DNA of 64,000 nt from Sphyrna mokarran (lineage: Eukaryota): positions 63,240,001 through 63,304,000 of the forward strand of contig JAGIQG010000004.1 in assembly GCA_024679065.1 (NCBI GenBank). The letters run 5' to 3'. The notes under the pieces were generated by a model, which had not been told where the DNA came from, did not search any database, and saw nothing but the letters and a program-made list of their open reading frames with translations. The position numbers were made by a program, and so were the translations under genes. How positions within the stretch are numbered: the stretch's first letter is position 1; each line of letters begins with the position of its first letter. Shown piece after piece: positions 11,804 through 60,629 of this stretch.

Positions 11804-11858
11804 ATGTTGGCTAGTGTGACAATTCCGTGCATTACTGTTCTCGGAATCATTTTTACAG
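11804..11858 (+). CDS. Gene A exon 1, signal peptide [18 protein letters not shown](G)
   Basis: ATG at 11804, hydrophobic 18 codons + 1 nt, donor CAG|GTATCT; resembles gene B leader (CITVLGI vs CIWVLGI). Confidence 0.8.
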
Positions 11859-17800: not shown

Positions 17801-20800
17801 AAGAAGTTTATTTTTAGGCTCAGTAAGTGCTCATTGTGAAGTCTTCAATAATTCCTAGGTATGCACAAGGATGGTGGAAGATGTCATTATCCGGAACAGC
17901 AGGTATGTTTCTATAATTCGTTCTAATACATCGCAAATGTTAATATATACAAGTGATGTAATCAATTTATGGCAATAAATGTTGATGCCTTATTCCATTG
18001 CTGCACAAATTCGTTTGAAGTAACGCAATGCGAATTCTGCATTTATATCATTTCCAATAAATCAGAGAGGCCTGAATTGTCTATCTGAATTGTAACTGTA
18101 TCTGCCTGAATTGTAACTGTATCTGCTGGCTGAGAATAAGCATATTGCATAAAACTGAACATCCATTTTAATGAATAGGTTAAAAAAATCTACTTTATCT
18201 GTCTGTACACAGTGGACAATATGATGAGGGCTGTAGAACATCCATTAACAAATTGAAAACTGCCACATGATTTCATCTGACAGTGATATATTGAATTCAG
18301 TTTTCATAAATGTATCTCATCAAAATACAAAAGCTGCAAGAATATCCTTTAAGTTGTGTTCCCTCAAGAACCAATTGGTTCATTAAAGTCTGACAACAAA
18401 GCATATCTATCATTTTTGAATGATAGCCGTCCACACTGTATTGGTTAACTCTTAACTCCCTTCTGAAATTTCCAGATATGCCCATCGCGAATTTCTCAAC
18501 TCATCCAAGTTTAGGTAATCAAACCTGGTCCAATCAGCAGATCCAGTAATTGAGAGTTAGTTGAAAATGCTGTCAAAGTTGTCAGTTTTTCTTTAATGTT
18601 CCCATGCGTGCAGAGGCATTACAATTGAAACTTGGGATCAATTTGCCACAATGAGAATAACCACAAGGATGCAGGTACCAGGTAATTGGCATTCGCTCCC
18701 ATTGCCTTATCCAACCATCAAATAATCAACTAAATTTGGAACATCCCAACAAATACAAAGGAAGAGCATTATTTAAATAGCGATATATTGGGAATTGATG
18801 ATGGACAAAAGGATTTGAGTGTCATTGTACATTAGTCAATGAAAGTTCAGAGACAGCTGAAGCAAGCAGTTAGGAAGGCAAATAAACTTTATTGCAAGAG
18901 GACTTGAGTTCTAAAGTATGGATGTCTTGCTCAATTATAAGGTGCCTTGTTAAGACCACACCTGAGTATTGTGTATAGATTTGTTCTCCCCACCTAAGAA
19001 AGGCTATATATGCTATAGAGGGACTGCAGCAGAACTTCTGAAGTGGATATCAGGTTGGGTAGGTTTGTCATGTCAGGAGAGATGGAGAAATTGGAAGGAT
19101 AAGAAGAAATCTGATTAAAATATATAAAATTCTGAATAAACTGGGCAAATATTTTGTTTCCTATCTGCTGACGAGCTTTCTATCCATCTTAAAACATTAT
19201 CAATAATCTTATTTGTTTTAACATTACACAGTAGTTTACTATGTAAAAACTTGTGGAAAGCCTTCTGAACGTCTAAATAAGTCACATTCACCAGTTTTCC
19301 TTGGTCAACTCTGTTAGTTACATCCTCAAAAATTCGAATAGATCTATCAGGAATTATTTCTTCTTCGCCTGATTATGCCACTGCTTTCCAAATGCTCAAC
19401 TATAAAATCAAATTCAAGCAACTTCACCAATACTGCCATTAGGCTGACTGCTCTATAGTTCGCCGTTTGCTCTCCTCCTCTTTTTTTGAAGAGACACAAT
19501 TTCCAGGGCCACTTTGTCAGTAGTCTGGAGTGAAAATTATTATGAATCCAGGAGATTTAGCCAGCTTCAATCCCATCAATTTTCCCAAAACCATTTTTCT
19601 ACTAACACTGATTTCCTTCCGTGTCTCATGAAAACCTGTTTTTTCTCAGGACTTCTAATATATTATTTATATCTTCCTTTGTGAAGGCAGAAGCAAAGTA
19701 TGAGTTTAGTTCCTCAGCCAGTTCTTTGTTCCCTGTCATGAATTCTCCCATTTCTGGCTATAAGAAGCCTACATTCGTTTTCCGATTTTTTTCTCTCTTT
19801 CCATACCAATAGAAACATTTGCAGTCAGTTTTTATGATCCCTGCTAATTTATTTTCATTGTTTATGTTCCCCTTCTTAACTAATGCATTGGTCTTCCTTT
19901 ACTGAAAATTAAACAGTTCCCAATATTCAGGTCTATTGCTTTTTAATAGAACATAGAACATAGAACAATACAGCACAGAACAGGCCCTTCGGCCTTCGAT
20001 GTTGTGCCGACCAAAATAAAAAAGCAATGCCCCTCCAAACTAAACCATTCCCTTCTCTTCCATATACTTATCAATTAACCTCTTAAACGCCACCAAACTT
20101 GGCGCATCTACACAGCTGCAGGCAGGGCATTCCACTCCCTAATCACTCTTTGAGTAAAGAACCTACCTCTGATATCCGTCCTATAACTCATACCCCCTAA
20201 TTTAAAGTTGTGTCCCCTCGTGCTAGCTTTTTCCATCCTAGGAAAAAGGCTATCACTGTCACCCTATCCAAACCTCTAATTATCTTATATGTTTCAATAA
20301 GATCCCCCCTTAGCCGCCTCCTTTCTAACGAAAACAACCTCAAATCCTTCAACCTCTCTTCATAGGACCTGCCCTCCATACCAGGCAACAACCTAGTAAA
20401 CCTCCTCTGTACCCTCTCCAATGCCTCCACATCTTTCTTATAATGTGGCGACCAGAACTGCACACAATACTCCAAGGGCGGCCGCACTAGAGTTTTGTAC
20501 AGTTGCAACATGATGCTGCGGCTCCTAAATTCAATCCCCCTACCAATAAAAGCTAAGACTCCATAAGCCTTCTTAACAAATTTATCCACTTGACTGCCTA
20601 CTTTCAGGGATCTATTGACACATACACCAAGATCCTTCTGTTCCTCAACACTATTAAGAGCCCTACATTAGCCCTATACTCTACACATTCATTGTTCCTG
20701 CCAAAGTGCATTACCTCACACTTTTCCACATTAAACTCCATTTGCCACCTCTCGGCCCAGCTCTGCAACTTGTCCAAGTCACTCTGTAAACTAAAACACC

Positions 20801-23800
20801 CCTCTTAACTATCTACCACACCACCAACTTTAGTATCATCTGCAAATTTACTGATCCATCCCTCAATACCCTCATCCAGATCATTTATAAAAATTACAAA
20901 CAGCAGGGGCCCCAAAACAGACCCCGGAGGCACACCACTCGTCACCGAACTCCACGATGAATATCTCCCATCAACCACCACCCTCTGTCTGCTATCTGCC
21001 AGCCAATTTCTAATCCAATTAGCTAAATCACCCTCTATTCCACACATCTGCATTTTCTGTAGAAGTCTTCCATGGGCCACCTTATCAAAAGCCTTACTAA
21101 AGTCCATATATACTACATCAACCGCCTTACCCCCATCCACCTCTCTGGTCAATTTCTGCCAATTTATATGCTTCTTCATTGAATCTTATGCAATTTCCAA
21201 TTTCCCGCGTAGGTTATGATTTGGCCACAGTTCCATTACCAATTATGGAATAACAGGAATAAGCACCTTAAATGCCTACCATTGCTTGTCCAGTTATTCC
21301 TTTTCAATAATACCCCCCGATCCATTATCACCAATTCATGTCTTATACCATTTTTGTTATCTTTATTGGGATTTAGGACCCTGGTCTCCGAATCAATCAT
21401 GTCACTATCCATCTTGGCAAAGGTGGTATGTTATGATCACATCCCGATGGACTTGTTCACTGCTAGATTGCAAATGAATCCTTTCTCATAACAATACACT
21501 GTCCAAGGTGGCCTATTCCTCGTTGATTGCTCAACATATTAGTCCAGAAAACCATACTGTATAGACTTCAGAATTTCCTCCTCTATTTTACTGTGATTAA
21601 TCTGATTCTTCTAATCTATATGTAGATAAAGTCACTCTTCATCACAGACGTTTATTAACACATGCACATCTGATTTCCTGTCTAATGCTACTCCCAACAT
21701 TGTCACTACAGTTTGATGTTCTGTAAACCACATCCACAAAAGTTTTTTTCTTTCCCCCTTCGTGTTTCTTATCACAGCTCGTACGGATTGCACATTGTCG
21801 ATGCCAATAATATTTTTCCTCAATATCCTATCAATGTTTTCTTTGATCAACAATACAACTATCTTTTGCGACTGTCCTTCTTAAAGACTGAATAACCTTC
21901 AATGTTTAGTGACAATCCTTTGTCAACTTTGAACCATGTCTCTGTCATTCCAACTATATCATTTCCGTTTACATCCATCTGTGTTTCTAAATCATCCATT
22001 TTGTTTTGAATGCTCTGAACGTTAGGTGTGTCCATTTAAAAGTATTTGCCCATTCCTATAACTATTTTTACCATATTCATATCTGACTCTGGTCTTTGTT
22101 TTCTCTGCTATCACTTTTCTTATTCTATTTGCAGTCTTTTTCACTTGAACTTGCTTCTCCCTGTTTTGAATCCTCACTTACATTCCCATCCCCCAGTCAC
22201 TTCCCAATCATTGTAGCAAGAAGCAGCTGCCTCCTCCCCCACCCCGCCCCCCCCCACCCCGCCCCATCATCCCCGCCCCTCCTAAGGAAACGATCTCTGG
22301 TCCTGCTCAGAACTCATCTCTCCATCCCAATGCCTCAGGAATCTGAAACCCTCCCCCTCACACCATATTTTTAGCCATATATTCATCTGGCTGCTGCCAC
22401 TCTGGCACCAGTTGTAATCTTGCAATAACTACCTTTGGGGTTCTACTTTTCAGCTTGTTTCTTAGCTCCCTATATTCTGCTTAAGGGACCCTTTTTTGTC
22501 ATTGTGATTTGTTCCAATGTGGACCACGATCACTGGCTGTTCAGCCTTGATCACCTTGAATAATGGAGTAGACTCAATGGACCACTTGTCCTACTGTTGC
22601 TCTGTTTCTGCTTTTTATTATTATTCAATCGTGGGACATAGGCATAGCTGGCTAGCCAGCATATATTGCACATTCCTACTTGTCCTCGCTCAGAGGGCAG
22701 TTGAGATTCAACCACATTGCCTGTGGCTCTGGAGTCACCTGAAGGCCAGACCAGATAAGGACGGCAGATTTCTTTTCGAAACGACATTAGTCAATCAGAT
22801 GGGTTTTTCTGACAATTGACAACGGTTTCTCGGTATTTAGTAGATTCTTATTTGCACATTTTTACTGAATTCAAATTTCACCACCTGCTGTGGCGGGTTT
22901 TGATCCCAAAACATTAGCTGTGTTTCTGGGTTAGTAATCTAGCCATAACACCATTAGTCCATCACCTGCCTCCCCCCCCCCCCCCCCCCCCCCCCCCCGC
23001 CTTTTTTTTTGTATTTGTCTTCAACTTTATTGCATTAATGGGGCCAGCGAGTCTAATCAAATATTGAGAAAGCTGCTGGAACTGAGGGTATTATGCCCAC
23101 TGTATTTCCCCTTTTTATATATAATGAATGGACAGAAATATGTTGCCATTTAGTCCATTTTTGTGATACATACTGCATGCTCCATCAAATTACTCGTACA
23201 GGCAAGGAAGCAACATTTCAGGATATCACCCAGTCAGTAGCTGAATATACTAATGATTTTTCTGTGATAGATTTTCACACTTGCTTTACATTTGTATTTC
23301 TAATTCCATTTCTTCTTCCTGCTTAATTCATCAGAGTCCAGCTTGGTGCAAAGCGATGGAAATATCTGTAGATAGAAAAGTTACATAATTAGAGAATTAT
23401 TATTATAGATGTTGATGTGGATATTGTGATATTGTGGATGAAGTAAAATATCAAAGTAAGACTTTATATTTAGTCTGGAATTTCTCTGTCTTGTTGCAAT
23501 ATAGACTGTTTTGTCCCGCATTATGACCATTAATTTCTATTTGTGGTTTGTCAGAATATTAGAAATGACCTGATTGCTGGCCATGGTCCTTTCTCTCAGG
23601 CTATGTTAATTCAATTCCTGCCAGGTGATAATTGCTGCAGAAATTTTCTAATTATGCTTAAAGTTGAATTTCATAAAATAATATCAGTAGATTACTTATT
23701 TTTGCTGTAACGTCTGTATGAATTCAACTGTGGCTTCCATCAATGGAATACAGGGAGCAACTGTGACTCCTCATTTGTTCCTTTATTTCCCTCATCATGA

Positions 23801-26682
23801 GATTTCTCAGGATTCCATTAATCTTAACAGAATACTCGGAGAAATCCCAGAGCACTGAATGAATGAATATCTTCAACCATTTATGCTGTTTCTCTTGGGA
23901 TAGTTCTAGCCACGCAGACAAGTTTAGTCTGGAACAAGTCGTATGTTTGTGGAATTGTGCAGACAGATTTCTGTGTTTTCCTGATGCCTGATCATTAAAC
24001 AATGTTTGAGCAGAGCACCCAAATGGAAATCCGGTGAGTGGAATATTGCCATCACATTTCAATATTAGGAAATTGCGGCAAATTTTGTTCTCAGCAGTGC
24101 CTCTACCAGATTTTCCATTCGGTACTCAATGCTGACAATGTTGACAATGCTTGAAGCCCAGATGGTAAATCTCTGAAACTCTGATCACCCTCATACAAAC
24201 GATATATTTTAAGTAATAAGACTGTTAGAAACCAGGGCAGAAACTCCAAGGTATATTGTGAATTTAGTGTAGACCGAAAATGTTTGTGATTTTGCAATAG
24301 TGGGAATACAAAGTGTTCCACTCCAGGTGTGATAACTTTTATGAAAACAAACTTTATTTAACAATTAGTTAAAATATGACAAAAAGAATTAACATAACTT
24401 TTACTGGTTGAAATACTTAAAGATGATAAAATATAAATCTTAAGTTTTTTTATTACTTCCAATTTTAGCAACAATCACAAAGATGTATATTTCCTTCAGA
24501 ATCAGTTAGCAACGCACAGTGCCTTAAATGAATTCTTAGTGCTCCAGCTTTTTAATCCCTCTGGTCAAAGTTATGGAGAGAGATACTCATCTTTGATTTT
24601 CAGGTAGCAGCCTCCATAGAGGAAATCTGTCTTCACACACAGAACTTCAATGAGAGAGAGTGAGAAAACACCTCTTGCCTATTTCAGAATTCTGGAGATA
24701 GATACTTCCAATTTCTGAAAACGGAAGAGGGCAAAAGAGCAACTCTTTTCTATTAGAAAGAGCAACTCTATTCTATTAGAATAGAATAAAAATGCATATC
24801 CCGACCCGGAGACGTGTTTTGCTGACATTCAAACGCTTGTTATGGTGCGGTTAGCCACTGCTGTTCGTTGAGAAACACAGCAGCCAATCCGTTCAGAGCA
24901 AGATCCTACGAATATCGATGTAAACTGCAACTGCCTTCTTTATCCTCTTTCTAAGCCTTGCCCTATCCACTCCACTTTTCATTTAATGTAATATTACTCT
25001 GAAACCACAGGTAACACATCAAAGAATATCAACAATAGCATTAGCCTAGATTAAAACAAGTGCTTCAATGGTTAGAGGAGCAATTAACCTTATGTAGTAT
25101 CAGCAAGTGGGCTGTGAATTGTGACTGGTTGGCATCGTAATTAGAGTTGAAGCATAAGATAGTCCCTTCAGAAGAAATATGACTCAAATACATTTCTTAA
25201 AGGCACAGTATCATCACAAGACTCCGTCCACCCTCTTTGCGCTGGTGCTGGAGGGATGGGACTCTGCCAGAATGCAATGGACAGTTGTGATTTCATTTAA
25301 TTCTGGGGCTGCAAATTATGGGCTTATTCATATCAGTCTGTAGACGGAGTGGATAACAAGTGTTTTTTTTTTAATTGACTTTCAGTTCATTCAAGGAACT
25401 GTCGAATTGTTGCCACCTTATTCTGCACCAGATACGACCGAATCCTAAACAAAAACCTCCAAGACATCAAGAACAGACACCATGCATCCAGGTAGGATCG
25501 AGCAAAGATGCGGAATGCGTAATTAACAAGTTGTGTATGGGAAAATACATTTAATACGGCTTTGCTACTTCTGTCTGCGTTAGCGCTAATTCTGCGACAT
25601 TCTTCCGGTATTATGTCAGTTAAAATTCCGTTTGGCTTCAGAGTCGAAAGATTGTAGGATATAGCCCACTCAGGAAACTTGAGAGTAAAGTATAATTTGG
25701 CACTCTTGTGCATTACTAGGGGAAGTCTGCATTATCTGAAGTGCCGTATTTCAAAGGAGACGTTAGACTGAGGCTCTAGTATTCTAGATTTGCAGCAGAT
25801 TAGGCCTATTACTCCCTTCAGTTCAGAAGAATGAGATGGGGATCTTAATGAGATGTAAAAGTTGTTAAAGGAGATCGGTAAGGTGAAGTCAATGTCCGCC
25901 AATGTAGAACAAGACGTCATAGTTTGAGGGTAATGGATAGCAGATTGAAAATAGAGACCAGGAGAAATTACGGGAGTCTGTAAAATTCATCTCTCAAGAT
26001 TTTAATGAGATGCTGGGACATTGACTAAATTAAAGGAAGAAGTGAAGTGGTTTTTAAATCGTAATAGTTTGAAGGGTCATGGTGAACAGACAGGAAAATA
26101 AAGTTTGAGGCCGAGATAAGAGCAGCCATGACCATATTAAAGGTGGAGCAGGCTCGAGGGCCTGAATTGCGTACCCCTGCTCTTAGTTCTTATGATTCTT
26201 ATGTATGATTCATATGATTCAATGGCATTATTTCGAAGAAGAGCAGGGATGTTATCCCCTGTGTCTCAGTCAATGCCTTTGGTCCCCATTACGAAAACAA
26301 ATTGTTAAGAGTACATCGATATTCGTAGGATCTTGCTCTGAACGGATTGGCTGCTGTGTTTCTCAACGAACAACAGTGGCTAACCGCACCATAACAAGCG
26401 TTTGAATGTCAGCAAAACACGTCTCCGGGTCGGGATATGCATTTTTATTCTATTCTAATGAGTTACAATAAAGTAAAATTGGAACTAATTATATTCCCAA
26501 TCATTGATTTCACAGACAAGCAAGGATTACCCGATAATAAGCTGACGTATGCTGCTCTAGATGTGGTAGGGTCAAAGAAAACTTCACAGCCAAATCATAA
26601 TGATAAAAGCACGGAATATGCTCAGCTAAAGATGGAAAAACAAAGAGCAGGAGTTATCTGCACCGAACCGAAAATCACGTGA
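11804..26682 (+). CDS. Gene A: multi-exon IgSF receptor, leader-V(J)-C1-TM-cytoplasmic ITIM (SIRP-like / non-rearranging antigen-receptor-like). Minimal model join(11804..11858,12029..12349,13820..14131,16116..16223,26516..26682), 320 aa
   Basis: Five exons with GT-AG boundaries and phase-1 junctions; 55+321+312+108+167=963 nt, open to TGA at 26680-26682; domain motifs given in the exon entries. Extra small cytoplasmic exons may exist. Confidence 0.85.
12029..12349 (+). CDS. Gene A exon 2, VJ-type Ig V-set domain
   Basis: Acceptor ttttccccatag, donor A|GTAAGT; [45 protein letters not shown] shows the B-strand Cys, C-strand Trp, DxGxYYC and a J-like GxGxxLxV in one exon. Confidence 0.93.
13270..13795 (+). 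mobile_element. Old tRNA-headed Deu-type (SacSINE/AmnSINE-like) SINE in gene A intron 2
   Basis: GGTTCAAATCC B-box, GTCCAGGCCAATATTTCTCCTTCATCAAC core; paralog at 44775-45185. Confidence 0.6.
13820..14131 (+). CDS. Gene A exon 3, Ig C1-set domain
   Basis: Acceptor ttgttctag, donor G|GTAAGA; [46 protein letters not shown] matches the C1 signature (C..FY..I..TW, NG.Y...S.L, YTC.V.H). Confidence 0.92.
15490..15985 (+). mobile_element. Old CR1 relic
   Basis: GATGTGTTGTACTTAGATTTCCAAAGGCATTTAACAAA (D.VYLDF..F.K) and a degenerate 3' hairpin. Confidence 0.6.
16116..16223 (+). CDS. Gene A exon 4, stalk + transmembrane helix with Lys
   Basis: Acceptor ttcttacag, donor G|GTAAGA, phase 1-1; [36 protein letters not shown]; Lys codon 16154-16156; KK after the helix. 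Confidence 0.85.
16836..17145 (+). mobile_element. HE1-like V-SINE
   Basis: tRNA-like head ACGGTGGCACTGTGGTTAG..GGGTTCAATT, V-domain, CR1-like tail GGGCTGAATGGCC..GATTCTAT. Confidence 0.9.
17419..17737 (-). mobile_element. HE1-like V-SINE
   Basis: Reverse complement of head, V-domain and tail. Confidence 0.88.
17859..17902 (+). CDS. Candidate small cytoplasmic exon of gene A ((G)[14 protein letters not shown])
   Basis: attcctag acceptor, CAG|GTATGT donor, open from phase 1; ends in phase 0, so it needs a partner exon or an alternative acceptor downstream. Confidence 0.45.
18740..22330. mobile_element. Old CR1 relics (+ strand 18740-19140; - strand 19150-22330, split by a young CR1)
   Basis: Degenerate RT and endonuclease fragments. 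Confidence 0.6.
19946..21152 (-). mobile_element. Young CR1, 5'-truncated
   Basis: [33 protein letters not shown]; C-terminus; (GTTCTAT)n tail. Confidence 0.95.
22630..22972 (-). mobile_element. tRNA-derived SINE (related copies ~6440-7390 -, 36240-36410 -, 54095-54420 +)
   Basis: Minus-strand head GGGAGGCAGGTGATGGACTAATGG; shared core GGGCAGTTGAGATTCAACCACATTGC..GGAGTCAC..AGGCCAGACCAG; adjoining poly-C tract 22972-23000. Confidence 0.7.
25432..25491 (+). CDS. Candidate small cytoplasmic exon of gene A ([20 protein letters not shown])
   Basis: cttattctgcaccag acceptor, CAG|GTAGGA donor, 60 nt, open in phase 0-0. Confidence 0.35.
25700..26205 (+). mobile_element. Old CR1 3' end
   Basis: AGAAGAATGAGATGGGGATCTTAATGAGATGTAAAAG; 3' GGCTCGAGGGCCTGAATTG..TTCTTATG tail. 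Confidence 0.65.
26516..26682 (+). CDS. Gene A terminal exon with ITIM (LTYAAL) and ITIM/ITSM-like motif (TEYAQL)
   Basis: Acceptor gatttcacag; [55 protein letters not shown]; motifs at 26542-26559 and 26611-26628, tyrosines 23 aa apart. Confidence 0.82.
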
Positions 26683-38882: not shown

Positions 38883-38928
38883 ATGTTTGAAAGTCAGTGC
38901 ATATGGGTCCTGGGAATTACTTATGAAG
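38883..38928 (+). CDS. Gene B exon 1, leader MFESQCIWVLGITYE
   Basis: ATG 38883, 15 codons + 1 nt, donor AAG|GTATTT, similar to gene A leader, in phase with the V exon. Confidence 0.72.
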
Positions 38929-39030
38929 GTATTTTCCACAACGAATTGTTTTCTCCTTTAGAATCTTCGAATCCTGATTTCTTTTTCATCCGTGTGTCCG
39001 CTTATATTCTGCTTGCATAAATATCAATTT

Positions 39031-39097
39031 ATTTATCTATTTATCTATCAATCCATCCATCGATCTCTCTATCTATCTGTCTCTATCTATCTATCTC
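39031..39097. repeat. Imperfect (TCTA/TCCA)n microsatellite in gene B intron 1
   Basis: atttatctatttatctatcaatccatccatcgatctctctatctatctgtctctatctatctatctc. Confidence 0.8.
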
Positions 39098-39149
39098 TGG
39101 TTAAAGTACAGTTTGTGCGTGTAACAACTACATTTTAAATATTTTACAG

Positions 39150-39461
39150 TTGTTTCCACCTGGGTGTCGCAATCGCCTGAAAGCACCGTCGTGATGGCAG
39201 GTTCAGACATTACACTCTATTGTACAGCGAATGTTGTCCAGATTCACTCAGATGTGGATGTTTATTGGTGGAAACTTGGCGATGAAACCTTTTTACAACC
39301 GAAATCTAATGGCAGAAAACGATTCCTTCCTTTTAAAAGCGGAGCGACTTCCTTCCAGATTCTGAATGTTCGTGTCTCCGACTCCGGATTCTATTACTGC
39401 GGAGTGCGAGACAAAGGCAGCAGGATCCTCAACGGAACTGGATCCAAACTTGTTGTGCACG
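39150..39461 (+). CDS. Gene B exon 2, intact VJ-type Ig V-set domain
   Basis: Acceptor ttttacag, donor G|GTAAGA; WVSQSP..GSDITLYC..VYWWKLGD..FQILNVRVSDSGFYYC..ILNGTGSKLVVH; aligns without gaps to gene A V (~35/101 identical by hand). Confidence 0.92.
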
Positions 39462-39550
39462 GTAAGAGACGCAGGGCATCTGTCATTGCAGGATGCGATA
39501 CAGAACATCAGAGGCAGTTTTGACTAATCAGGGGGCATATTTGTGGGGTT

Positions 39551-42500
39551 ATAGAACATAGAACATAGAACATTACAGCACAGAACAGGCCCTTCGGCCT
39601 TCGATGTTGCGCCGACCAAAATAAAAAGCAATGCCCCTCCAAACTAAACCATTCCCTTCTCTTCCATATACTTATCAATTAACCTCTTAAACGCCACCCA
39701 ACTTGGCGCATCTACGACAGCTGCAGGCAGGGCATTCCATTCCCTAATCACTCTTTGAGTAAAGAACCTACCTCTGATATCCGTCCTATAACTCATACCC
39801 CTTAATTTAAAGCTGTGTCCCCTCGTGCTAGCTTTCTCCATCCTAGAAAAAGGCTATCACTGTCCACCCTATCTAAACCTCTAATCATCTTATATGCTTC
39901 AATAAGATCCCCTCTTAGCCGCCTCCTTTCTAACGAAAACAACCTCAAATCCTTCAAACTCTCTTCATAGGACCTGCCCTCCATACCATGCAACATCCTG
40001 GTAAACCTCCTCTGTACCCTCTCCAATGCCTCCACATCTTTCTTATCATGTGGCGACCAGAACTGCACACAATACTCCAAGTGCGGCCGCACTAGAGTTT
40101 TGTACAGTTGCAACATGATGCTGCTGCTCCTAAATTCAATCCCCCTACCAATAAAAGCTAAGACTCCATATGCCTTCTTAACAACTTTATCCACTTGGCT
40201 GCCTACTTTCAGGAATCTATTGACACATACACCAAGATCCTTCTGTTCCTCAACACTATTAAGAGCCCTACCATTAGCCCTATACTCTACACATTTATTG
40301 TTCCTGCCAAAGTGCATTACCTCACACTTTCCACATTAAACTCCATTTGCCACCTCTCGGCCCAGCTCTGCAACTTGTCCAAGTCTCTCTGCAAACTATA
40401 ACACCCCTCTTCACTATATACCACTCCACCGACTTTAGTGTCATCTGCAAATTTACTAATCCATCCTTCATACCCTCATCCAGATCATTTATAAAAATTA
40501 CAAACAGCAGGGGCCCCAAAACAGACCCCTGAGGTACACCACTTGTCACCAAACTCCACGATGAATATCTCTCATCAACCACCACCCTCTGTCTTCTATC
40601 TGCTAGCCAATTCCTAACCCAATTAGCTAAATCACCCTCTATCCCATACATCTGCATTTCTGCAGAAGTCTTCCATGGCCACCTTATCAAACGCCTTACT
40701 AAAGTCCATATATACCACATCAACCGCCTTACCCCCATCCACCTCTTTGGTCACTTTTTCAAAAAACTCGATGAGGTTAGTAAGGCACGACCTACCCTTC
40801 ACAAAACCATTCTGACCATCCCCAATCAATTCATTTCTCTCTAAATAACTATAAATCCTATCCCTAATAATTCTCTCCAATACTTTGCCCACAACAGAAG
40901 TAAGACTCACTGGCCTATAATTCCCTGAAGGTCTCTCTTCCCCTTCTTGAACAATGGGACCACATTCGCTATCCTCCAGTCCTCCGGAACCACACCCGTA
41001 ACCAACGACGACCTGAAGATCAGAGCCAGAGGCTCTGCAATCTCCTCTCTTGCCTCCCAGAGAATCCTAGGGTAAATCCCGTCCGGCCCAGGGGAATTAT
41101 CCAACTTCAAACCCTCGAGAATTTCTAACACATCCTCCCTATCTACTACAATACTTCCCAATTTGCAACCCTGTACCTCAGTGCTCTCCATAGCTACATT
41201 TCCAGCACTCTGCGTGAATACTGAAGAGAAATATTTATTCAGTGCCTCACCAATCTCTTCAGGCTCCACACACAACTTCCCCCTGCTGTCTATGACTGGC
41301 CCTAATCTTGCCCTAACCAATCTTCTATTCTTAACATATCGAAAGAAAGCTTTAGTATTCTCCTTAATCCTATCAGCCAACATCTTCTCGTGTCCCCTCT
41401 TAGCTCTCCTCAATTCACTTTTTAGCTCCTTCCTGGCTAATCTATAGCTATCCATTGCACTAACCGAGCCTTCAAGCCTCATCCTGACATAAGCCTCCTT
41501 TTTCCTTTTAACCAGCAAATCAACTTTTTTCGTACACCAAGGTTCTCTTACTCGACCATTTCCTCCTTGCCTGACGGGGACATACTTATCAAGGACTCGC
41601 AGCAGCTGCTCCTTGAATAAGCTCCACATTCCAGATGTTCCCAGTCCCCGTAGTTTCCTAGTCCAATCTATGCACCCTAATTCTCTCCTGATGGCCTCAT
41701 AATTACCCTTCCCCCAGCTATAACTACTGCCCCCAGCTTCATGCCTATCCCTATCCATCACTAAGGTGGACGTAACCGAATTGTGGTCACTATCACCAAA
41801 ATGTTCACTAACTTCCAAGCCTAACACCTGGTCTGGCTCATTGCCCAGCACCAAATCCAATGTAGCCTCACCTCTAGTTGGCCTATCTACATACTTAGTC
41901 AAAAAACCTTCCTGCACACTCTGTACGAAAACTGACCCCTCTAACGAGCTAGAGCTATAGCTATTCCAATCAATATTAGCAAAGTTAAAGTCCCCCATCA
42001 CAATTACCCTACTACTTTCACTCCTAATCAGAATTGACTTTTCAATCCTTTCCTCAACCTCTCTAGAACTATTAGGAGGTCTGTAAAAGACTCCCAACAG
42101 GGTGACCTCTCCTCTCCTGTTTCTCATCTCAGCCCATACTACCTCAACAGACAAGTCCTCATCAAACTTCCTTTCTGTCACTGTGATACAGTCTTTGACT
42201 AATAATGCCACTCCTCCCCCCCCCTTCTACCTCCTTCTCTACTCCGACTAAAGCATTTGAACCCTGGAACCTGCAACATCCATTCTTGTCCCTGCTCTAC
42301 CCAAGTCTCTGAAATGGCCACAACATCGAAGTTCCAGGTACTGGTCCAAGCTGCAAGTTCCTCCCCCTTATTGCGAATACTCCTTGCATTAAAGTATACG
42401 CATTTCAAACCACGCCCCACCCCACCCGTACGCCGCTGTGTTTTACAACTCTCTTCTATAACCCCCTTACTCTCATCCCTCTCAGCACCCCAACTACTTA

Positions 42501-43732
42501 GGATCCCACACCCCCCCCGAATCAGTTTAAAGCCCCCATCATAGCCTTAGCAAATTTTCCCCCCAAGATATCAGTCCCCCTCTGGTTCAGGTGTAGACCA
42601 TCTCTCTTGAAGAGGTCCCACCTATCCCAGAATGAGTCCCAATTGTTAAGGAACCTGAACCCTTCCCTCCTGCACCATCCACGCAGCCATGAGTTCAAAC
42701 TTTCTCTTTCTCTGTTCTTCTCTAAACTATCCCTTGGCACAGGCAAGAGTCCAGAGATAACCACTCTGCCTGTTATGGACCTAAGCTTCCACCCTAACTC
42801 CATAAATTTTTGTTTAATATCCCCTTCCCTTGTCCTACCTACATGATGTGTCCCCACATGAACTATGACTTGGGGCTGACTCCCCTCACCCTTAAGAATC
42901 TTAAAAACCCGATCTGCGACATCCTGGACCCCAGCCCCTGGGAGGCAACACACCAGCCCTGAGTCCCGTTTATTACTGTTTACCCTCCTATCTGTCCCTC
43001 TAACTATGGAGTCTCCTATAACTAGGCCTAATCTCTTATTCCCCCCACCCACCTGAGCATTCTCAGCAGGCTCACCCCCAGAGACCTGCTCACTTTGGTC
43101 AGCTCCAGTTGATTCTTCCTCAACTGTAGCCTCCAAGACAGAAAATTTATTTTGGAGGGGAACAGCCCCAGGGGATTGTCACCCCGATTGCTTCTTACCC
43201 CTCCTCCTAATAGTTACCCAATTATCACTTTTAGGAGTTACAATCTCTTTGTTACTCCTGCCTATATCCTCCTCAACCTCTCGAATTACCCTGAGTTCCT
43301 CTAATTCCAGCTCCAGCTCCTTAACACGATCCTCAAGGAGCTGCAAATGTGCACACTTCCTGCAGGTGGAATCAGCAGGAACACTACTGGTGTCCCTCAC
43401 CTCATACATACTGCAGGAGGTGCAACGTACTGCCTGCACTGCCATCACTGTTACTTTAATTTCCAGGAGAAGAAAAAAAAACTTCTCACACACTTTTATT
43501 ATTAGGTTAGAGGAGGGGGGAGGGTGGGATACTCTACCTGTGTAGAGTATCGGGTTACCTCTCTGGACCAATTTATAGAGTCAGAGAGAAAAACTTCCGG
43601 TTACAAGTTAGTTTAAATAAAAAACGGCAAAAACTACTCCCGCTCGCTGTTTTAACCAAAGAGAAAAGTTAAAAAACTACTTGACAATCGAACTTCTCGC
43701 TCTCCCAAATCGCTGCCTCTCCGTGCTGCTCC
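39551..43732 (-). mobile_element. Near full-length (~4.2 kb) CR1/HER1-type LINE in gene B intron 2: ORF1 (Zn-finger/coiled-coil + SGNH esterase) and ORF2 (APE + RT), frameshifted
   Basis: ORF1 CTSC..CRKC, LEDRVKELELELEEL, GDSIVRG, HVGTH, DGLHL; ORF2 [38 protein letters not shown]; (GTTCTAT)n tail. Confidence 0.95.
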
Positions 43733-44559
43733 AATGGAACAATGAGGCCATGTTCTCCGATGAGAACAATGATCCATCTGACTGCAAATATTTCACACTT
43801 CTAAGTCTTCCTATATGTGTTTTGATAGATTTTAATTGTAAATTAAACCCCACGACTAATGAAAAATACTTGAATCGATTTAAATTGGTGTTGAATCGTA
43901 CTACAATAATTCGGTAACATTGGTCTGCTTTATCTGTTTAGAACTTAGTTGCTTTTTTTAAATGCGCCCTAAGTTTGGAGGCAGCAAACAATTGAAGTTA
44001 AAAAATGCGGTGTTAGCTAATAAGGTGCATGTTTGAACAGTAGTATACACGTGCCGATTTGCAGATAGATCCTATTTTAATTTATCCGCATAGGTTACAG
44101 CTGATTGTATCCATCAGGATTCAAAACCTCCCCATTTATGATATCATGGTCCATAGGAAATCACCTATGACTAATTTTTAAATGTAGCACTCTTGAGCCT
44201 TACATTTTCTCACAATTTTGGCCGCCAATAAATATAAAATCATCCGACATATTGGTGCCGGAGTCTCACCAATTTTATAATTTTTTTTAGATTCAGATGT
44301 AAAAATCACCTTCAGCGGAACAGCAAATTAGACCAACATCCCAAATTGTACCTAATTGCCTCCCCAGTAGAATAAAAGATTGAGCGACTTTTTAAATGGG
44401 TACGAACTCATCCCGTGTTTTTTGGTTATTTTTGCCCGACGATAACAAATTTAAATTTCAAGCGAAATACTACTGACATAGGTGAAAATGTCCTTTAGAA
44501 TATAATTATTGATAATGCAACCTAACTCTCTGTCCTCCTAGGACAAAAGGTTAAAGTTC

Positions 44560-44700
44560 CACTCACCTGGAACTCACCTTTCAGAACAGCGTTCCAAAAG
44601 ATTGTGAGTTTCCTATCAAATAAACTTGTTGGACTTTAACTGGTGTTTTGAGACTACTTAGTATGTTTACTCCAGTCCAATGCCGGCATCTCCACATCAT
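44560..44700 (+). mobile_element. Degenerate Penelope-type terminal repeat fragment
   Basis: AAATAAACTTGTTGGACTTTAACTGGTGTT..CCAGTCCAATGCCGGCATCTCCACATC matches the right arm of 51410-51608 and 52067-52107. Confidence 0.65.
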
Positions 44701-44774
44701 AACTTCCACTACCCCACCAGCAATCGATTGGAACACAAAGTTTGGCTGGTAAACTGGATTAATAGTATTAACTA

Positions 44775-45185
44775 TCACTGAGTTGGTAACACGGTCTCCT
44801 CTGAGAGTCACAAGGACCTTGGTTCAAAGCCCAGTCCAGGAGTTGAGTATAAATATCAAGGCTGACCCTCCAGTGCAATACTCCAGGAATCGTGCACTGC
44901 TGGGGGTGCGTTTCTTCGGAAGAGTCATTAAACCTAGTCTCACTTTGCCGCTACGATGGACGTGAAAGATCCCGTACCATTACTTTGAAGAAGAGCAAAG
45001 GTATCCAGGCCAATATTTCTCCTTCAATCAACATTGCAACAAATATGATGTGATTGTTTTTATTGTTGCTGTTTTTGGAAGCTTCTGTTCACAAATTGGC
45101 TAATAAATTTTCATCATTACAACGGTAACTATATTTCCAACGTCCTGTTTCATTGTAAAGCTCTCTAAGACGTCCGCAGTGTGAA
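44775..45185 (+). mobile_element. Deu-type SINE, paralog of 13270-13795
   Basis: GGTTCAAAGCCC..CCAGTGCAATACTCCAG..TCCAGGCCAATATTTCTCCTTCAATCAAC; same position just upstream of the C1 acceptor. Confidence 0.65.
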
Positions 45186-45217
45186 ACTGCCAATTTTTCA
45201 ATTCTTCATTGTTCCAG

Positions 45218-47332
45218 TTTCGCAACATCACTGAAAATTAATCCTCAGCAACTTGAAACGGATCCAGTTGCCACTCTGATTGTACTATGAACCACATCTC
45301 CTATTTCCCCGAAAAATACCAGCTTTATTTGATATATAGTTGGCACAAAAACTGCAGCAGGGATAAATGCCATCATTAAACCCAGCACCGATGGATCACG
45401 GAGAATCCTAAAGCTTTCTTTAGATATGTTAAGAATAGGAGATTGGTTAGGACAAGATTAGGGCCAGTCAGAGACAGCAGTGGGAAGTTATGCGTGGAGC
45501 CTGAAGAGATTGGAGAGGCACTGAACAAATATTTCTCTTCGGTATTCACACAGGGTGATGTAAATGTAGTTGTGGAGAACACTGGGATACAGGGTTGAAA
45601 ACTGGAAAGTATTGAAGTAGATAAGGAGGAGGTGTTAGATATTCTTGAGGGTTTGAAATTAGATAAGTCCCCTGGGCTGGATGGGATTTAAACTAAGATT
45701 CTCTGGGAGGCAAGAGAGGCGATTGCAGAGCCTCTGGCTCTGATCTTCAGGCCGTCGTTGGTTACAGATATAGTGCCGGATGACTGGAGGATAGCAAATG
45801 TTGCCCCATTGTTCAAGAAGGGGAATAGAGACTTTCCTGGGAATTATAGACCGGTGAGTCTTACTTCTGTTGTGGGCAAAGTATTGGAAAGGATTATTAG
45901 GGATAGGCTTTATAATTATTTAGAGAGAAATGAATTGATTGGGGACAGTCAGCATGGTTTTGTGAAGGGTAGGTCATGCCTTACTAACCTTATTGAGTTT
46001 TTTGAAAAGGTGACCAAGGAGGTGGATAAGGGTAAGGCAGTTGACGTGATATATATGGACTTCAATAAGGTTCCCCATGGAAGGCTTCTGCAGAAAATGC
46101 AGATCTATGGGACTGAGGGTGATTTAGCTAATTGGATTAGGAATTGGCTGGCTGATAGAGGACAGAGGGTGGTGGTTGATGGAAATTATTCATCATGGAG
46201 TTCAATTACAAGTGGTGTACCTCAGGGATCTGTTTTGGGGCCTCTGCTGTTTGTAATTTTTATAAATGATCTGGATGAGGGTATTGAAGGATGGATTAGT
46301 AAATTTGCGGATGACACCAAAGTCAGAGGAGTGGTAGATAGTGAAGAGGGGTGTTATAGTTTGCAGAGAGACTTGGACAAGTTGCAGAGCTGGGCCGAGA
46401 GGTGGCAAATGGAGTTTAATGCGGAAAAGTGTGAGGTAATTCACTTTGGCAGGAATAACAAATGTGTAGAGTATAGGGCTAATAGTAGGACTCTTAATAG
46501 TGTTGACGAACAGAGGGATCTAGGTGTATATGTGCATAGATCCTTGAAAGTTGGCAATCAAGTTGATAAGGTTGTTAAGAAGGCATATGGAGTCTTGGCT
46601 GTTATTGGTAGGGGGATTGAATTTCAGAGCTGCAACATCATTTTGCAACTGTACAAACTCTGGTGCGGCCACACTTGGAGTATTGTGTACCATTCTAGTC
46701 GCCACATTATAAGAAAGATGTGGAAACATTCGAGAGGGTGCAGAGGAGGTTTATCAGGATGTTGCCTGGTATGGAGGGCAGGTCTTATGAGGAGAAGCTG
46801 AGGGATTTGAGGTTGTTTTCGTTAGAAAGAAGCGGCTAAGAGGAGACCTTATTGAAACACACAAGATGATCAGAGGTTTAGATAGGGTGGACAGTGATAG
46901 CCTTTTTCCTCAGGTGGAGAAAGCTAGCATGAGGGGACATAGCTTTAAATCAAGGGGTGGTAGTTATAGGAAGGATGTCAGAGGTAGGTTCTTTACCCAG
47001 AGAGTGGTAAGGGTATGGAATGCCCTGCCTGCAGCAGTTGTAGATGCGCCAAGTTTGGGGGCGTTTAAGAGGTCAGTGGATAGGTTTATAGATGAAAAGG
47101 GAATGGTTGAGGTTAGAGAGTCATTGCTTTTTCTTAATTGGTCGGCGCAACATCGAGGGCCGAAGGGCTTGTTCTACGCTGTAATGTTCTATGTTCTATA
47201 TGAAGCTTCAAACCATTTACAAGAGACGCTGCCTGCCCGGTCCTTAACCGTCTGTATATACCCGTCTGGTCTTTCACAATGCACTCCAAATTCCAGCCAC
47301 AACCATTCACATTATCATTTACCCAAACACAG
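45218..47332 (+). pseudogene. Gene B disabled C1 exon (45218-45395 + 47196-47332), split by a CR1 insertion
   Basis: Paralog of gene A C1 ([18 protein letters not shown] | LYEASNHLQE..LVFHNALQIPA..YPNT G|GTAAGA); Cys->TGA 45288-45290, Trp->TGA 45330-45332, 1-nt deletion near the start, 4-nt insertion near 47253, second Cys->Arg. Confidence 0.9.
45396..47199 (+). mobile_element. Young CR1 inserted in gene B C1 exon
   Basis: ORF 45758-46801 RT ([13 protein letters not shown]); tail GTTCTATGTTCTAT runs into host CTATATGAAGCT. Confidence 0.95.
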
Positions 47333-48260
47333 GTAAGATTGCAGGTCTCAGTTATTGCAAGTTGAGGCATTTCTGCTGCTTTCCCGACTTGGCTAAATCT
47401 AGTTTCTGATTTATTGTCCTTTTTCCACACTTGTCACCACATTTTAAACTCCCGAAAGTGAAGTTCATCGGTTTAATTATGTTACATTTCAATCAAGTTT
47501 AATTTTATTCCAAAAGCTTCACGATTGCTTTTTCATCGTGCGTCTCTCTCAGGAATTCTGGAGTCAGGGAGCAGTGTGCAGCTGAGTCCTTGGGAAATAC
47601 TTCCCGATTGATTCGTGGAGACTGAAGCGCCCTTACCCGAATCCCACAATCTGTGCTCAAAATCTGATGCAAATTGCTAAGTTACCAGTTAGACAATTTA
47701 TGGTATTAAATGTTTCCTATTGACATTTTCAATCACAATCTCGTTACAAATTACAAAGAAGATTAAATTGAGCTCTGAGAAAATATATATTTCCATACAG
47801 CTGCACCGCTGTGAATAAAACGGTGAAGTAGCAACGTTTACTTACACGACAGGTAGTCTGGCAGTATCCGTGCAGAAAGCAACAGAGTTGATATTTCGAG
47901 CCCTATATAACATTTCTTCAAATAATTCTCATTTTCTTGAGTTCTCAAGTCATATTGGATACGGAACGTTAGCGTAGATGTTGCCAGAGCCGCTATTTCC
48001 AGCACTTTTTTTAATACAAGAATCCAGAAGCTACAACATTTTGTTTTTATTCCATTACTAACACACATTGGGTTTGAAAAAGGCATATGCGACATATTTT
48101 TGTATGTGTTTCATTGATATCTCACATCGAGAAAGCACATCCAGATGTGCACGCGATGATTGGTCTTTCTAATGGTAACTCTTGTCATTTGGAAACGGTG
48201 TCAGGTCCAAAGAGTGAAGATATTTTTTTTCATTTAGAAATAGCGCAAAAAACAGGGCGA

Positions 48261-48565
48261 GGCGGCGCGGTAGCACAGTGATAAACACTGCTTCTTCACA
48301 GCTCCAGGGACAGTGACACAGCTCGGGTCACTGTCTGTGTGGAGTTTGCACATTCTCCTGCGTGGGTTTCCTCCCACAATCCATGATGTGCGAGTTAGGC
48401 TGATTGCCCATGCTAAAATTGCCCTTAGCGTCCTAATATGTGTAGGTTAGAGGGATTAATGGGTAAATGTGTGGGGATATGGGGTGGTTCCTGGGTGGGA
48501 TCGTGATCGGTGCGGACTCGATGGGCCGAATGGTTTCTTTCTGTACTGTAGGGATTCTATGATGA
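48261..48565 (+). mobile_element. HE1-like V-SINE
   Basis: GGCGGCGCGGTAGCACAGTG head, V-domain, GGGCCGAATGG..GATTCTATG tail. Confidence 0.9.
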
Positions 48566-48767
48566 CGATCTATGATAAGACTCTGTGGAACTCCAACATA
48601 GACCCTGGAGGCCGGCTGGTCGTTTTCAGTGCTGTAAATTCCATGTAAACCCGAATCAGCAATGTTCAAATTACAAATAGAAATACATTTTAATGCAAAA
48701 TTGACCCATTGGCCGTGTGGTATTTATTCTCTCTTCAGCAATGTTCTGGTTCGATGTACCGACCTTA

Positions 48768-49186
48768 TAGAACAAAGAACAAAGAACAACACAGCACGGG
48801 AAACAGGCCCTTCGGCCCAACGAGCCCGCGCCGCCATCCTAACGTCTTAATGACATATAGAGAACAATATAGGACAATTTGTTACCCAATCAGCCTAAGA
48901 GCACATTTTTGGGATGTGGGAGGAAACCGGAGCACCCGGAGAAAACCCACGCAACCACGGGGAGAACGCGCAAACTCTCGCAGACACAGGCCCAAATCTA
49001 TGTGTCTGCACAGCAACAGCGATAGTCTCTGAGCTGTCATGTTGCCCATCTGATAGTCCAGTTTAAGCATACACTAACGACATGAAGCACGAGGCCTCTC
49101 CTGAAATAACATCCAGGAGCAGCCCTCGCACGACCTGCTGAATGCATGCACCTTGTTGGTCAACAAGGTGGACCGAACAGCCTGTG
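48768..49186 (-). mobile_element. V-SINE with non-tRNA structured head and (GTTCTTT)n tail
   Basis: Same family as 51607-52063 and 60187-60629. Confidence 0.85.
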
Positions 49187-49199
49187 GAAACAATTAAAG

Positions 49200-49810
49200 T
49201 ATTTAAACAGTCCTCCTATATCCCTCTATCTGCAGACCGCTCATGTGGCTGTCCAGGAGACCCTTAAACACCCCTAGCGTGCCTGCTCCCACCACCTTAC
49301 TCGGTAGTGCATTCCACACCCCCACTACCCTTTGTGTGCAAAAATGCCCTCTAATATTAGTCTTATACATAGCCCCCTTCACCCTAAGGCCGTGACCCCT
49401 CGTTCTATCAGAATCTAATGGTGGAAAAAGCTTACCACCATTTACTCTATCTATACCCCTCATAATCTTATAATTATCTCATAATCCTCTAATAGATCCC
49501 CTCTCAGCCGACGTCTTTCAAGGGAAAACAACCCCAGTGCGTTCAACCTTTCCTTGTAAGACAGCCCTTCCATACCAGGCAGCATCCTGGTAAATCTCCT
49601 CTGCACTCTCTCCAGGGACTCCACATCCTTCTGGTATACGGCGACCAGAACTAGACGCAGTACTCCAAGTGAGGCCTAACCAACGTTCTATACACTTGCA
49701 ACATCAAACTCCTACTCTTGTATTCTATACCCCTTCCTATGAAGGCTAACATACCATACGCTTTCTTTATCACTTTTTCCACCTGTACTGACACCTTCAG
49801 AGACTTGTAT
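49200..49810 (-). mobile_element. CR1 fragment (different subfamily)
   Basis: ORFs 49203-49463 and 49651-49833. Confidence 0.9.
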
Positions 49811-54513: not shown

Positions 54514-54601
54514 TTCTGATCTTCCAGGCAGTAATCTTCTAAAATTAAACAATAAAAATTAAACAATTAATTCTCGAAGATTACTGTCTGGAAGATCAGA
54601 A
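54514..54601. repeat. Inverted repeat / hairpin, ~35-bp arms
   Basis: TTCTGATCTTCCAGGCAGTAATCTTCTAAAATTAA ... TTAATTCTCGAAGATTACTGTCTGGAAGATCAGAA. Confidence 0.9.
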
Positions 54602-57995: not shown

Positions 57996-59799
57996 TTTAT
58001 TCAGCAGGTGGAATTTCTCTTCAAGATTGTGACAATGAGTAAAAGGAACACGCTTCATAAAGATGTCATGAGGAGATTGGGGACTAAGTTGCTAGCAGTG
58101 CTTTCGGATTCATCTGACTTTTGTTACCTCTCCATATAAACGATTACGTAAGTTCTTTCACCAAATAATTTCAAACAAGATAGCCTAATATGTGACTCAT
58201 TGTGCTGAACAATAATGATCTCTGTATATCCCTGTGGATCAAAGTTCATAATTCACAATTTCGTTGGTGAAGTTCCCAAGTTCCTTGCATCCCATTTGTG
58301 AAATGTGTATAGCTTTTTACTGAATCTCGAGGGTGTATGCGTTTTATGAACTTATGGTTCGGTAATAAATTGTGATGCATGGAAAGGAAAAATTCAATGA
58401 CTTGATGGATCTTACGAACCTTGAGAACAATTGAAGCTAGAGATGGCACAAGCGGAAATGCCCTTTAAAATGTACTCATGACAGACTCAAGCAGAAATAT
58501 TTTTGACCGCTGTTAGATAACGGTTATCGAGCGCTTTCTTAGCTGCTCGTTTGTATTGTTGAATGCGAATTAATCGGACCTTTCACAAAAACTGTTCAGA
58601 GGTTTGTGATGCTGTGAAAATTGTTGGCTTAAATTTGGCGAGGTTGAAACAAAATCAACAGCTGAATCATTCTAACTAAATGCAAACTGAGTGTCAATGA
58701 GCAGGATATTGCGAAGCAAGTGCCATTTGATAACACTGTTGGTGGCCCTTTTCATCACTTTATTGATGATCAAGAACAGACAAATGGGCCGGTGTTAGGT
58801 TTGCTTTTTTTTCTGCACAGGATATATATCTGGGTAATTTTCCATACTGTCGGGTAAATGTCAATGTTGTGGCTTTACAGGAACAGCTTGGATCCGGACG
58901 CAGCAAATTCTGGAGAACAAGCCCTCGTTACTATTGACGGGGTCCAAAGCTTTTGCAATATCCAGTGCCTCCAGTCGTTTCTTGATATCAGATTAATGGG
59001 TTATCCCACAACACTTCTGACTGAAGATTGGTGCAAATACCTCAGACTTAGCACAGCGCTGCTGTGTTGAGCTCCTCTATTATTGAGAATAGTGAAATTT
59101 GTAGAGCCTTCATTTCAGTGAGTTGTTTAATTGCCACCAACTTTCATGGCTGGATGTAGCCGGACTACAGAGTTTAGATCGGACCACTGAGTTGTGGAAT
59201 TGCTCAGCTCTATTATTGCTTACGCTGTTTGTCACGCAGCTGGACTTAAGTTGTACTTTCACCAAGTTGGAACGTCACTGCGGAACTGCCTTTTTTTGTG
59301 TGTGGCGGAGGGACATTCAAGAACCCACATGTATTAGGTTTAATTGGACAAATAAACAACAATCAGAGTCTGGATAGATTGGAAACAGTGGGTGGACCTT
59401 CCTCCCTAAGATAACCCTGAACCAAACCTGGAAATCCACCCACAGATTGTATCACCACTCCAAACCTTTCACAAAGCCTTTAGAAATTTTCCCCAGCAAT
59501 ATTTTAAGCCCAGATGCTAACAGTTGGGAGAGGGAATGTGAACAGACATAATCGGAACAGAATCATTTGGAGCAGATTGATCTTAAAATGTCATCTTACT
59601 CATCGCTTTTCTGTTCCCTTAGTGGCAATGCGACCCCCGCCACACACACCGTCCCCCAGCCGCCTACCAGTCCCGATCATTCCTTTCCGTCTCTCTCCAA
59701 TTCTTCTGCCTCACTGACTAATCAATGACTCTCTTCAATGGGCGAGCCAGTGACATCCATGGAGATAAAGGCCAGTCAGTGGGGGTTTCAATGTAAAAT

Positions 59800-60185
59800 G
59801 ATGGTCCTGTTGAAAAAGTTGAATCGCATTAAAGTTTACGTGGTTTATCGGACGAAAAATTTAAACACACGACACAGCACCTCACCATGTTGCAAGTCAG
59901 ACTGGATAGTCTACAAACAAATATTTCTAAATGATCAGAACAGCTGTCCACTGGTCGATTAACAGCCATTTCATAAAATAGATAAATTATACTTTAACCG
60001 TAGACAAGTGGAGAAACATAGTCACAGGCAGGCAGGACGCAATAAGACTGTTCGAAGAAACAAATGAACAATAGACCCAGACCAACTGGAATGTGCAATA
60101 CTTCGTAAATAATCCGCAATGCCTAGATGCACTGACTCACATTCTAATGTCAGGTTCAGACATCACATTTCACGGTACAGCCAAC
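59800..60185 (+). pseudogene. Decayed 5' fragment (promoter/leader/V start) of a third family member
   Basis: 60147-60184 matches gene B V 39194-39231 at 30/38 nt (MSGSDITFHGTAN vs MAGSDITLYCTAN); ATGTTGCAAGTCAG at 59887 resembles leader ATGTTTGAAAGTCAG; GGTTTATCGGACGAAAAATTT resembles upstream GGGTTATCGACGAAATTTTT; ends at a SINE. Confidence 0.6.
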
Positions 60186-60186
60186 T

Positions 60187-60629
60187 TAAAGAACAACAAA
60201 CAAATCAGCATGGGAAATAGACCCTTCGGCCCAACGATCCCGCGCCACCACCCCGATGTTCCCACCTCTACCCGTGATCCCTGTCTATGTTTATAGAGCT
60301 ATGGATTAAAAACCAAATTTGTGACAATTTAGGGAGAATTTGTTTTGCCAATTAGCCTCAGAACACATCTTTGGGATGTGAGAGGAAACCGGAGGTCCTG
60401 GAGAAAACCCACGCATGCACGGGGAGAATGCGCAAACTCCCACGGGGCCAAATCCATGTATCTGCACAGCACAGCAATAGTCACTGAGCTGTCATGTTGC
60501 CCATCAAATGGTCCAGGTCAAGGGTACACTAACTAGGATATTCTCGAAAAAAATCCAAGAGCACCTCTCTCAGGACCCATCACGTGTATGCCCCTTGTTA
60601 GACAACAAGGTGGACCAAAGCACCTGTAG
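60187..60629 (-). mobile_element. V-SINE with non-tRNA structured head
   Basis: Reverse complement closely matches 51607-52063. Confidence 0.88.

Follow-up and report, generated by a model that had tools for sequence, protein, structure and literature searches.

Receptors with a joined VJ domain include SIRP and NKp30 (PMC11599192), and NKp30, PRARP and UrIg are listed as VJ genes that do not rearrange (PMC10751288). NKp30 is composed of one V domain plus a transmembrane (TM) segment with a charged Arg (PMC6514059), UrIg and UrIg2 carry three or more C1 domains (PMC12227049), shark NCR3 genes have been described (MT914154-914161; PMC12227049), and the origins of SIRP are stated as unknown (PMC9652883). 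The stretch considered here is a 64-kb window, i.e. 64,000 nucleotides (nt), of the Sphyrna mokarran assembly GCA_024679065.1 (contig JAGIQG010000004.1, positions 63,240,001 to 63,304,000, forward strand; positions below are counted from the first letter of the window). It contains two genes, A and B, of one immunoglobulin-superfamily cluster, and is rich in CR1-type long interspersed nuclear elements (LINEs). Gene B displays an open leader and an open V exon, and the next recognizable exon is a broken C1. Judged by its sequence, that C1 is a dead copy of the C1 of gene A, and gene B is, with somewhat better than even probability, an ordinary V-C1-TM receptor with a long intron, splicing over the dead A-type C1 to its own C1 past the end of the window.

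The closest protein relatives of the window are from Mustelus, then Scyliorhinus and Heterodontus. They represent an elasmobranch VJ-C1-TM cluster whose members bear the RefSeq names SIRP-alpha-like, Ig lambda-like or tapasin-related-like. The locus shares with that cluster the split leader, the single VJ exon, a V identity of 61-83% and tandem A-type and B-type copies; it differs in what comes after gene B V, namely an A-type C1 and a B copy, both dead, while its own C1 and TM would lie outside the window. The SIRP family is alike in the VJ followed by a C1-set domain in gene A and the relatives of gene B, and in the tyrosine motifs of A-type tails. SIRP-alpha, beta and gamma have two C1 domains, whereas the shark family has one. 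When a 20-sequence family profile was compared with the PDB (188 matches), UrIg2 (9dmx) ranked second, SIRP-alpha (2wng) third and SIRP-gamma (4i2x) eighth; since antibodies and UrIg2 are mixed among these matches and score as well as or better than the SIRPs, orthology to SIRP is not shown. The window contains no flanking genes by which synteny with the mammalian SIRP cluster could be judged. NKp30/NCR3 likewise has a non-rearranging VJ domain, but the relatives of gene B possess a C1, the window yielded no TM exon for gene B, and NKp30 is missing from the 60 best PDB matches listed. UrIg and UrIg2 are also non-rearranging shark VJ plus C1 genes with a split leader, and differ from the family here in its single C1. 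No description of this cluster of non-rearranging shark and ray VJ-C1 receptors was met in the literature searched, and key subscription work beyond reach may cover it. The family bears on the ancestry of antigen receptors.

Affiliation of the broken C1 exon

A first-pass annotation, made from the letters of the window alone, had taken the broken C1 to be the own exon of gene B. This assignment is not upheld, as the exon groups with A, carries the intron of A, and the relatives of gene B use another C1. At the protein level the broken exon is 67% identical to gene A C1 and 73% identical to the A-type C1 of Mustelus, vs. 29-32% to B-type C1s, which themselves are 35-39% identical to gene A C1. 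At the DNA level the broken exon and gene A C1 are 79% identical over 101 codons (dS 0.45, dN 0.19). In a tree of 37 C1 domains, which excludes one candidate (P0034) whose extraction failed, the broken exon is placed with gene A and Mustelus A (support 98/98) and the B-type C1s form a separate clade (100/99). Constraining the broken exon to group with the B-type C1s, a grouping named before the tree was seen, was rejected by the approximately unbiased (AU) test (p=0.0004).

The comparison with B-type genes uses four relatives, one each from Mustelus and Scyliorhinus and two from Heterodontus (XP_078066430.1, XP_038662043.1, XP_067906088.1 and XP_067906082.1). A homologue search with gene B V restricted to proteins near its length returned no candidate. 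Among longer proteins 3 of 51 candidates matched (84, 76 and 68% identity), all of them V plus C1, and the fourth B-type gene (P0010, Heterodontus) came from a profile search. A metagenome scan gave 250 pattern matches, none confirmed. A search for sequencing runs with 39100-39520 listed none, a result that says nothing for or against expression. The status of C1 in related species had been proposed as a check on a V-only gene B; all four B-type relatives join their V to a C1, which is B-type and so of a different type from the broken exon, and none is V-only. This includes the RefSeq model from Mustelus, in which V still joins a B-type C1. Fifteen relatives have an A-type C1. Three of these are modelled without a full V and one, with a partial V, was left out; the V of the remaining 11, all in the V tree, is A-type (100/99). 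Thus no hybrid of B-type V and A-type C1 occurs among the relatives compared (4 B-type, 11 A-type). In Heterodontus at least 2 B-type and 5 A-type genes are found, their contigs being equal in length, so that tandem copies seem usual for the cluster.

In three RefSeq models (P0157, P0159 and P0163, from Mustelus, Scyliorhinus and Heptranchias) an A-type C1, TM and tail are present but the V is largely or wholly missing. Genes of the cluster may often decay exon by exon, unless these models are incomplete. When the broken exon, gene A C1 and Mustelus P0157 are compared, the broken exon is ancestral at 3 sites and gene A at 3. These mixed patterns suggest possible gene conversion between A-type C1 copies, and they hint that both copies could be older than the split from Mustelus.

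All six lesions counted by the first-pass annotation were found again upon alignment of the broken exon to gene A C1. They are an indel of -1 nt at about 45222, TGA codons at 45288 (Cys codon) and 45330 (Trp codon), the split by a CR1-type LINE, an indel of +4 nt at about 47250-47256, and a Cys to Arg change at 47263-47265. The acceptor (45216-45217) and the donor (47333) survive. Both stops are real, but the -1 indel precedes them, so that translation would already end at the sixth codon if the acceptor were used. C1 was also correctly described as a symmetric exon that can be skipped without loss of frame, gene A C1 being 312 nt long and phase 1-1. The contrast of six lesions in C1 against none in leader and V does not hold as it was drawn, because the pieces compared come from separate gene copies. 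The case cautions against assigning an exon to a gene on proximity alone.

Probable duplication debris downstream of gene B V

The broken exon did not travel by itself. Upstream of it, over ~1.45 kb, lies a colinear copy of nearly all of the gene A V-C1 intron, beginning at the point that in gene A lies about 20 nt past the V donor, with alignment scores of 385.5 (maximum of 40 shuffles 128.5) and 164 (maximum of 300 shuffles 116). The first 90 intron bases of gene B are unlike the intron of A (234 of 300 shuffles were as good), and since they match no better than shuffles a crossover inside the V exons is unsupported.

Some 15 kb downstream of the broken C1 are the remnants of a second, dead B copy, here called B'. 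Promoter-side sequence, a leader with the start of intron 1 that is inverted in place, and a V fragment can be recognized, the leader lying between the other two. The alignment of leader and intron scores 92.5, which none of 300 shuffles reach (the intron alone is equalled by 11 of 300), and no shuffle in 300 is as good as the V fragment. The fragment is identical to Mustelus B at 13 of 15 columns, vs. 11 of 15 for gene B at the same columns. Past B' the last 3.8 kb of the window consist of LINE sequence only. Neither sequence nor profile searches detected a B-type C1 in the 64-kb window, and the best match of a B-type TM profile there (5.8 bits) is below the reversed-sequence control (8.3). 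The order A C1, B leader-V, A' C1, B' leader-V, where A' is the copy of A, leads one to expect the B-type C1 after B'.

Other remnants of the duplicated block are less distinct. The possible decayed TM exon at 48130-48225, found with an A-type profile, reaches 9.5 bits with the family profile (best shuffle 9.9), and its DNA match to the TM exon of A is not significant. A second TM candidate near 54612-54677 (blastn E 0.001) was rejected, as the TM region of A scored 69 there, below the shuffle maximum of 75.5. Candidate remnants of the tail exons, leader or V of A in 47340-60600 were rejected also, being at or barely above shuffle level.

Proposed history of gene B

The layout could have arisen by duplication of a block reaching from the V-C1 intron of A to the V-C1 intron of B, or by duplication of A and B as a whole followed by deletion. 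Either route would give the order A, B leader-V, A' C1, B' leader-V, B-type C1. Every duplicated part would subsequently have lost one of its two copies, such that the two original genes remain. The debris would now form an intron, at least 24.5 kb long, across which gene B would reach the surviving B-type C1 and TM; its predicted product is the ancestral one, a short-tailed membrane VJ-C1 receptor like those of its relatives. The LINE within the A' exon lengthens it to 2.1 kb, probably making it a poor exon and helping its skipping. The proposal that gene B lost its own C1 and became V-only is not supported, in that the broken C1 is A-derived and the relatives of gene B use another C1 type, which is absent from the window. 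So understood, the locus is an ordinary instance of gene birth and death among clustered immune receptors, of modest value as a clear case of duplication resolved by complementary loss.

Several points weigh against this history. The B-type C1 and TM exons are unseen, the window ending 3.8 kb past the B' remnant, and the TM and tail exons of A' that would be expected in the block are not clearly found in the window. The relatives are known as RefSeq gene models, i.e. proteins only and not inspectable complementary DNAs. Mustelus may have kept B', since B' is closer to Mustelus than gene B is, and may then offer no direct precedent. A hybrid of B V and A C1 may once have been expressed, given a spacing of ~1.6 kb before the LINE next to V arrived. 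Of 57 columns without variation among its four relatives, gene B V itself has changed 4, and its end branch in the V tree is 0.13, vs. 0.048 for Mustelus.

Signs of constraint and possible decay in leader and V

The leader and V exons of gene B total 358 nt and translate without a stop from an intact start codon. V is a Pfam V-set domain (E 3.5e-9) and keeps the canonical Cys24, Trp39/40 and Cys83, and the earlier description of both exons as clean, with splice sites and Cys/Trp retained, is borne out over the full 358 nt. Identity to the V of the four B-type relatives is 86/103, 78/103, 68/103 and 63/103, and to gene A V about 38%. The V tree puts gene B V inside the B-type V clade (5 rows, support 93/97, unstarred), and the leader is split from V in phase 1, as in the B-type subfamily.

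Gene B V and Mustelus V differ at 17 positions, changes in either lineage being counted together; the 63 conserved columns contain 6 of them and the 40 variable columns 11 (Fisher p=0.027). Gene A C1 shows a like bias (1 of 60 conserved vs. 9 of 43 variable columns, p=0.0015), the broken C1 none (21 of 60 vs. 10 of 43, p=0.28). Relative-rate tests of gene B V against Mustelus are not significant (7:5, 9:4 and 7:4). From its dN of 0.19 and the short branch of gene A (0.044), the broken exon is estimated to have taken up ~0.15 neutral changes per site. In simulations whose mutation parameters are assumptions, 358 nt stay free of lesions at 0.15 changes per site with a probability of 0.002 (stops, splice sites and frameshifts counted) to 0.036 (no indels). 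A dead leader and V would thus hardly be clean at this distance, which supports the conclusion that V survived longer than the broken C1, with signs of constraint. To this extent the earlier suggestion that V is under selection while C1 decays is sustained, by the bias against conserved columns as well as by the simulation.

Gene B V may nevertheless have died recently. In this unlikely alternative, leader and V are an orphan that has gathered no stop or frameshift yet, silenced by the young antisense LINE 89 nt past the V donor or by loss of the real C1. At 0.02 changes per site, which is about the age of that 96-97% identical LINE, the simulated probability of a clean 358 nt is 0.42-0.62. 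The four changed invariant columns and the end branch longer than that of Mustelus fit such a death, as does the decay common in the cluster, where the tail of gene A is frameshifted and 3 of 15 A-type relatives lack a full V. On the other hand, the changes in V still avoid conserved columns, the rate tests are not significant, and nothing has damaged the start codon, either splice site or the canonical Cys and Trp.

Another explanation, rated improbable, is that gene B works as a V-only protein after the C1 of a hybrid died. Duplication would have grafted B V to A C1, and after the decay of that C1 the V could, on a similarly improbable account, have been kept as a secreted VJ protein with a poly(A) site from a LINE. 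Reading through the V donor adds 20 codons before a TGA at 39521-39523, and an AATAAA is found 97 nt beyond, at 39620, inside the end of the LINE; alternatively, splicing could skip to a cryptic membrane-anchor exon. The long time over which V stayed open beside a decaying C1 is in keeping with this, and a precedent of a kind is seen in a more distant family gene from Pristis, the RefSeq isoform P0070 (138 amino acids, NCR3-like isoform X2), the gene of which also has a 324-amino-acid V-C1-TM isoform (RefSeq models). However, none of the four B-type relatives is V-only, and gene A has a similar read-through stop after its V. The AATAAA is weak evidence because this motif is common in the window (0.8 per kb), and it lies within a LINE much younger than the death of C1. 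Peptides resembling a membrane anchor in phase 1 follow 6 of 144 acceptor-like sites after V, vs. 5 spurious cases among 67 in the introns of gene A, i.e. background, in a scan that recovered the true gene A TM exon. As the window holds no convincing TM exon to skip to, the NKp30-like V-TM product once envisaged is unsupported. A V-only gene B would also require that the complete B' gene died while the incomplete one was kept. If true, one shark lineage would show a V-C1 receptor converted to V-only, a datable domain loss and a living model for the origin of soluble SIRP-delta-like or NKp30-like one-domain receptors.

LINE insertions

The young LINE behind gene B V (39551-43733) shares 96-97% identity with the nearest copies in the window, while the LINE that splits the C1 copy is older. 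The young element is flanked by an 8-nt repeat resembling a target-site duplication that matches at 7 of 8 positions, though, with its left half belonging to the LINE tail, the information comes from the right half alone; inspection by eye of the 5' junctions of 9 other LINE copies revealed no such match. The repeat fits a single clean insertion rather than a deletion or misjoin, and a LINE-mediated deletion at 39551-43733 was for this reason ranked low. Before the insertion, gene B V stood ~1.6 kb from the A-type C1, the spacing of a real gene. The pair would thus have resembled a hybrid gene, and this is the real basis on which the broken C1 was first given to gene B.

A misjoin of two tandem copies at the 4.2-kb young LINE, dropping the real C1 of gene B and setting gene B V beside the intron of another copy, is very improbable. 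It would explain why only about 35 nt separate the end of the LINE from the A-type intron homology, and the two 1-nt indels in the tail of gene A could be sequencing errors, but the repeat just described, within the limits of its right half, indicates insertion into continuous DNA.

On the other strand of the young LINE, 43130-43545 (+), an acceptor-like site is followed by an in-phase hydrophobic stretch, of a kind found at background frequency. If exonised, it would be predicted to anchor gene B V in the membrane.

Gene A and other features

Gene A, the source of the duplicated intron and C1, is listed with the remaining features in Table 1.

Table 1. Exons, exon remnants and LINEs at the locus of genes A and B, in window coordinates
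Feature	Position	Strand	Remarks
Gene A	11804..26682	+	leader, VJ, C1, TM and tail exons
Gene A leader	11804-11858	+	
Gene A V	12029-12349	+	
Gene A C1	13820-14131	+	312 nt, phase 1-1
Gene A TM	16116-16223	+	
Gene A tail exons	17859-17902, 25386-25491, 26516-26682	+	17859 exon placed by hand
Gene B leader exon	38883..38928	+	46 nt, open, phase-1 donor GT; B-type leader profile 25.1 bits
Gene B V, single-exon VJ domain	39150..39461	+	312 nt, open, B-type; AG/GT splice sites
Intron read-through frame after gene B V	39462..39523	+	20 codons, then TGA 39521-39523
Young CR1-type LINE	39551..43733	-	4183 nt, apparently full-length, antisense; 89 nt past V donor
Copy of gene A V-C1 intron	43760..45217	+	colinear with A 12370-13819; nearly all of the intron covered
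Dead A-type C1 exon, 5' half	45218..45395	+	-1 indel, two TGA
CR1-type LINE splitting the C1 copy	45396..47195	+	1800 nt, 5'-truncated; 92-93% identical to nearest copies, older
Dead A-type C1 exon, 3' half	47196..47332	+	+4 indel, Cys to Arg, donor intact
Possible decayed TM exon	48130..48225	+	A-type profile 11.0 bits (best of 20 shuffles 8.5)
B' promoter-side sequence	59568..59960	+	score 85.5; 0 of 300 shuffles, maximum 61
B' leader and start of intron 1	59960..60140	-	inverted in place, with stop; profile 14.1 bits (best of 20 shuffles 8.3)
B' V fragment	60141..60188	+	about codons 13-28, first Cys lost; 12.2 bits (best of 20 shuffles 8.9)

In the TM exon of gene A a Lys stands at a site that is occupied by small neutral residues in its relatives. 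The last two tail exons of gene A (25386-26682) carry indels of +1 and -1 relative to the relatives, and both splice routes therefore terminate upstream of the tyrosine motifs. A Lys gained and tyrosine motifs lost is the pattern of a change from an inhibitory to an activating-type receptor, and could be that here, with decay or sequencing indels as the alternatives. On either side of the sixth exon of gene A lie the two parts of a 148-nt inverted copy (24775-24922 and 26312-26459, 99% identity). An 88-nt direct copy with 86% identity occurs at 48578-48665 and 50348-50435.

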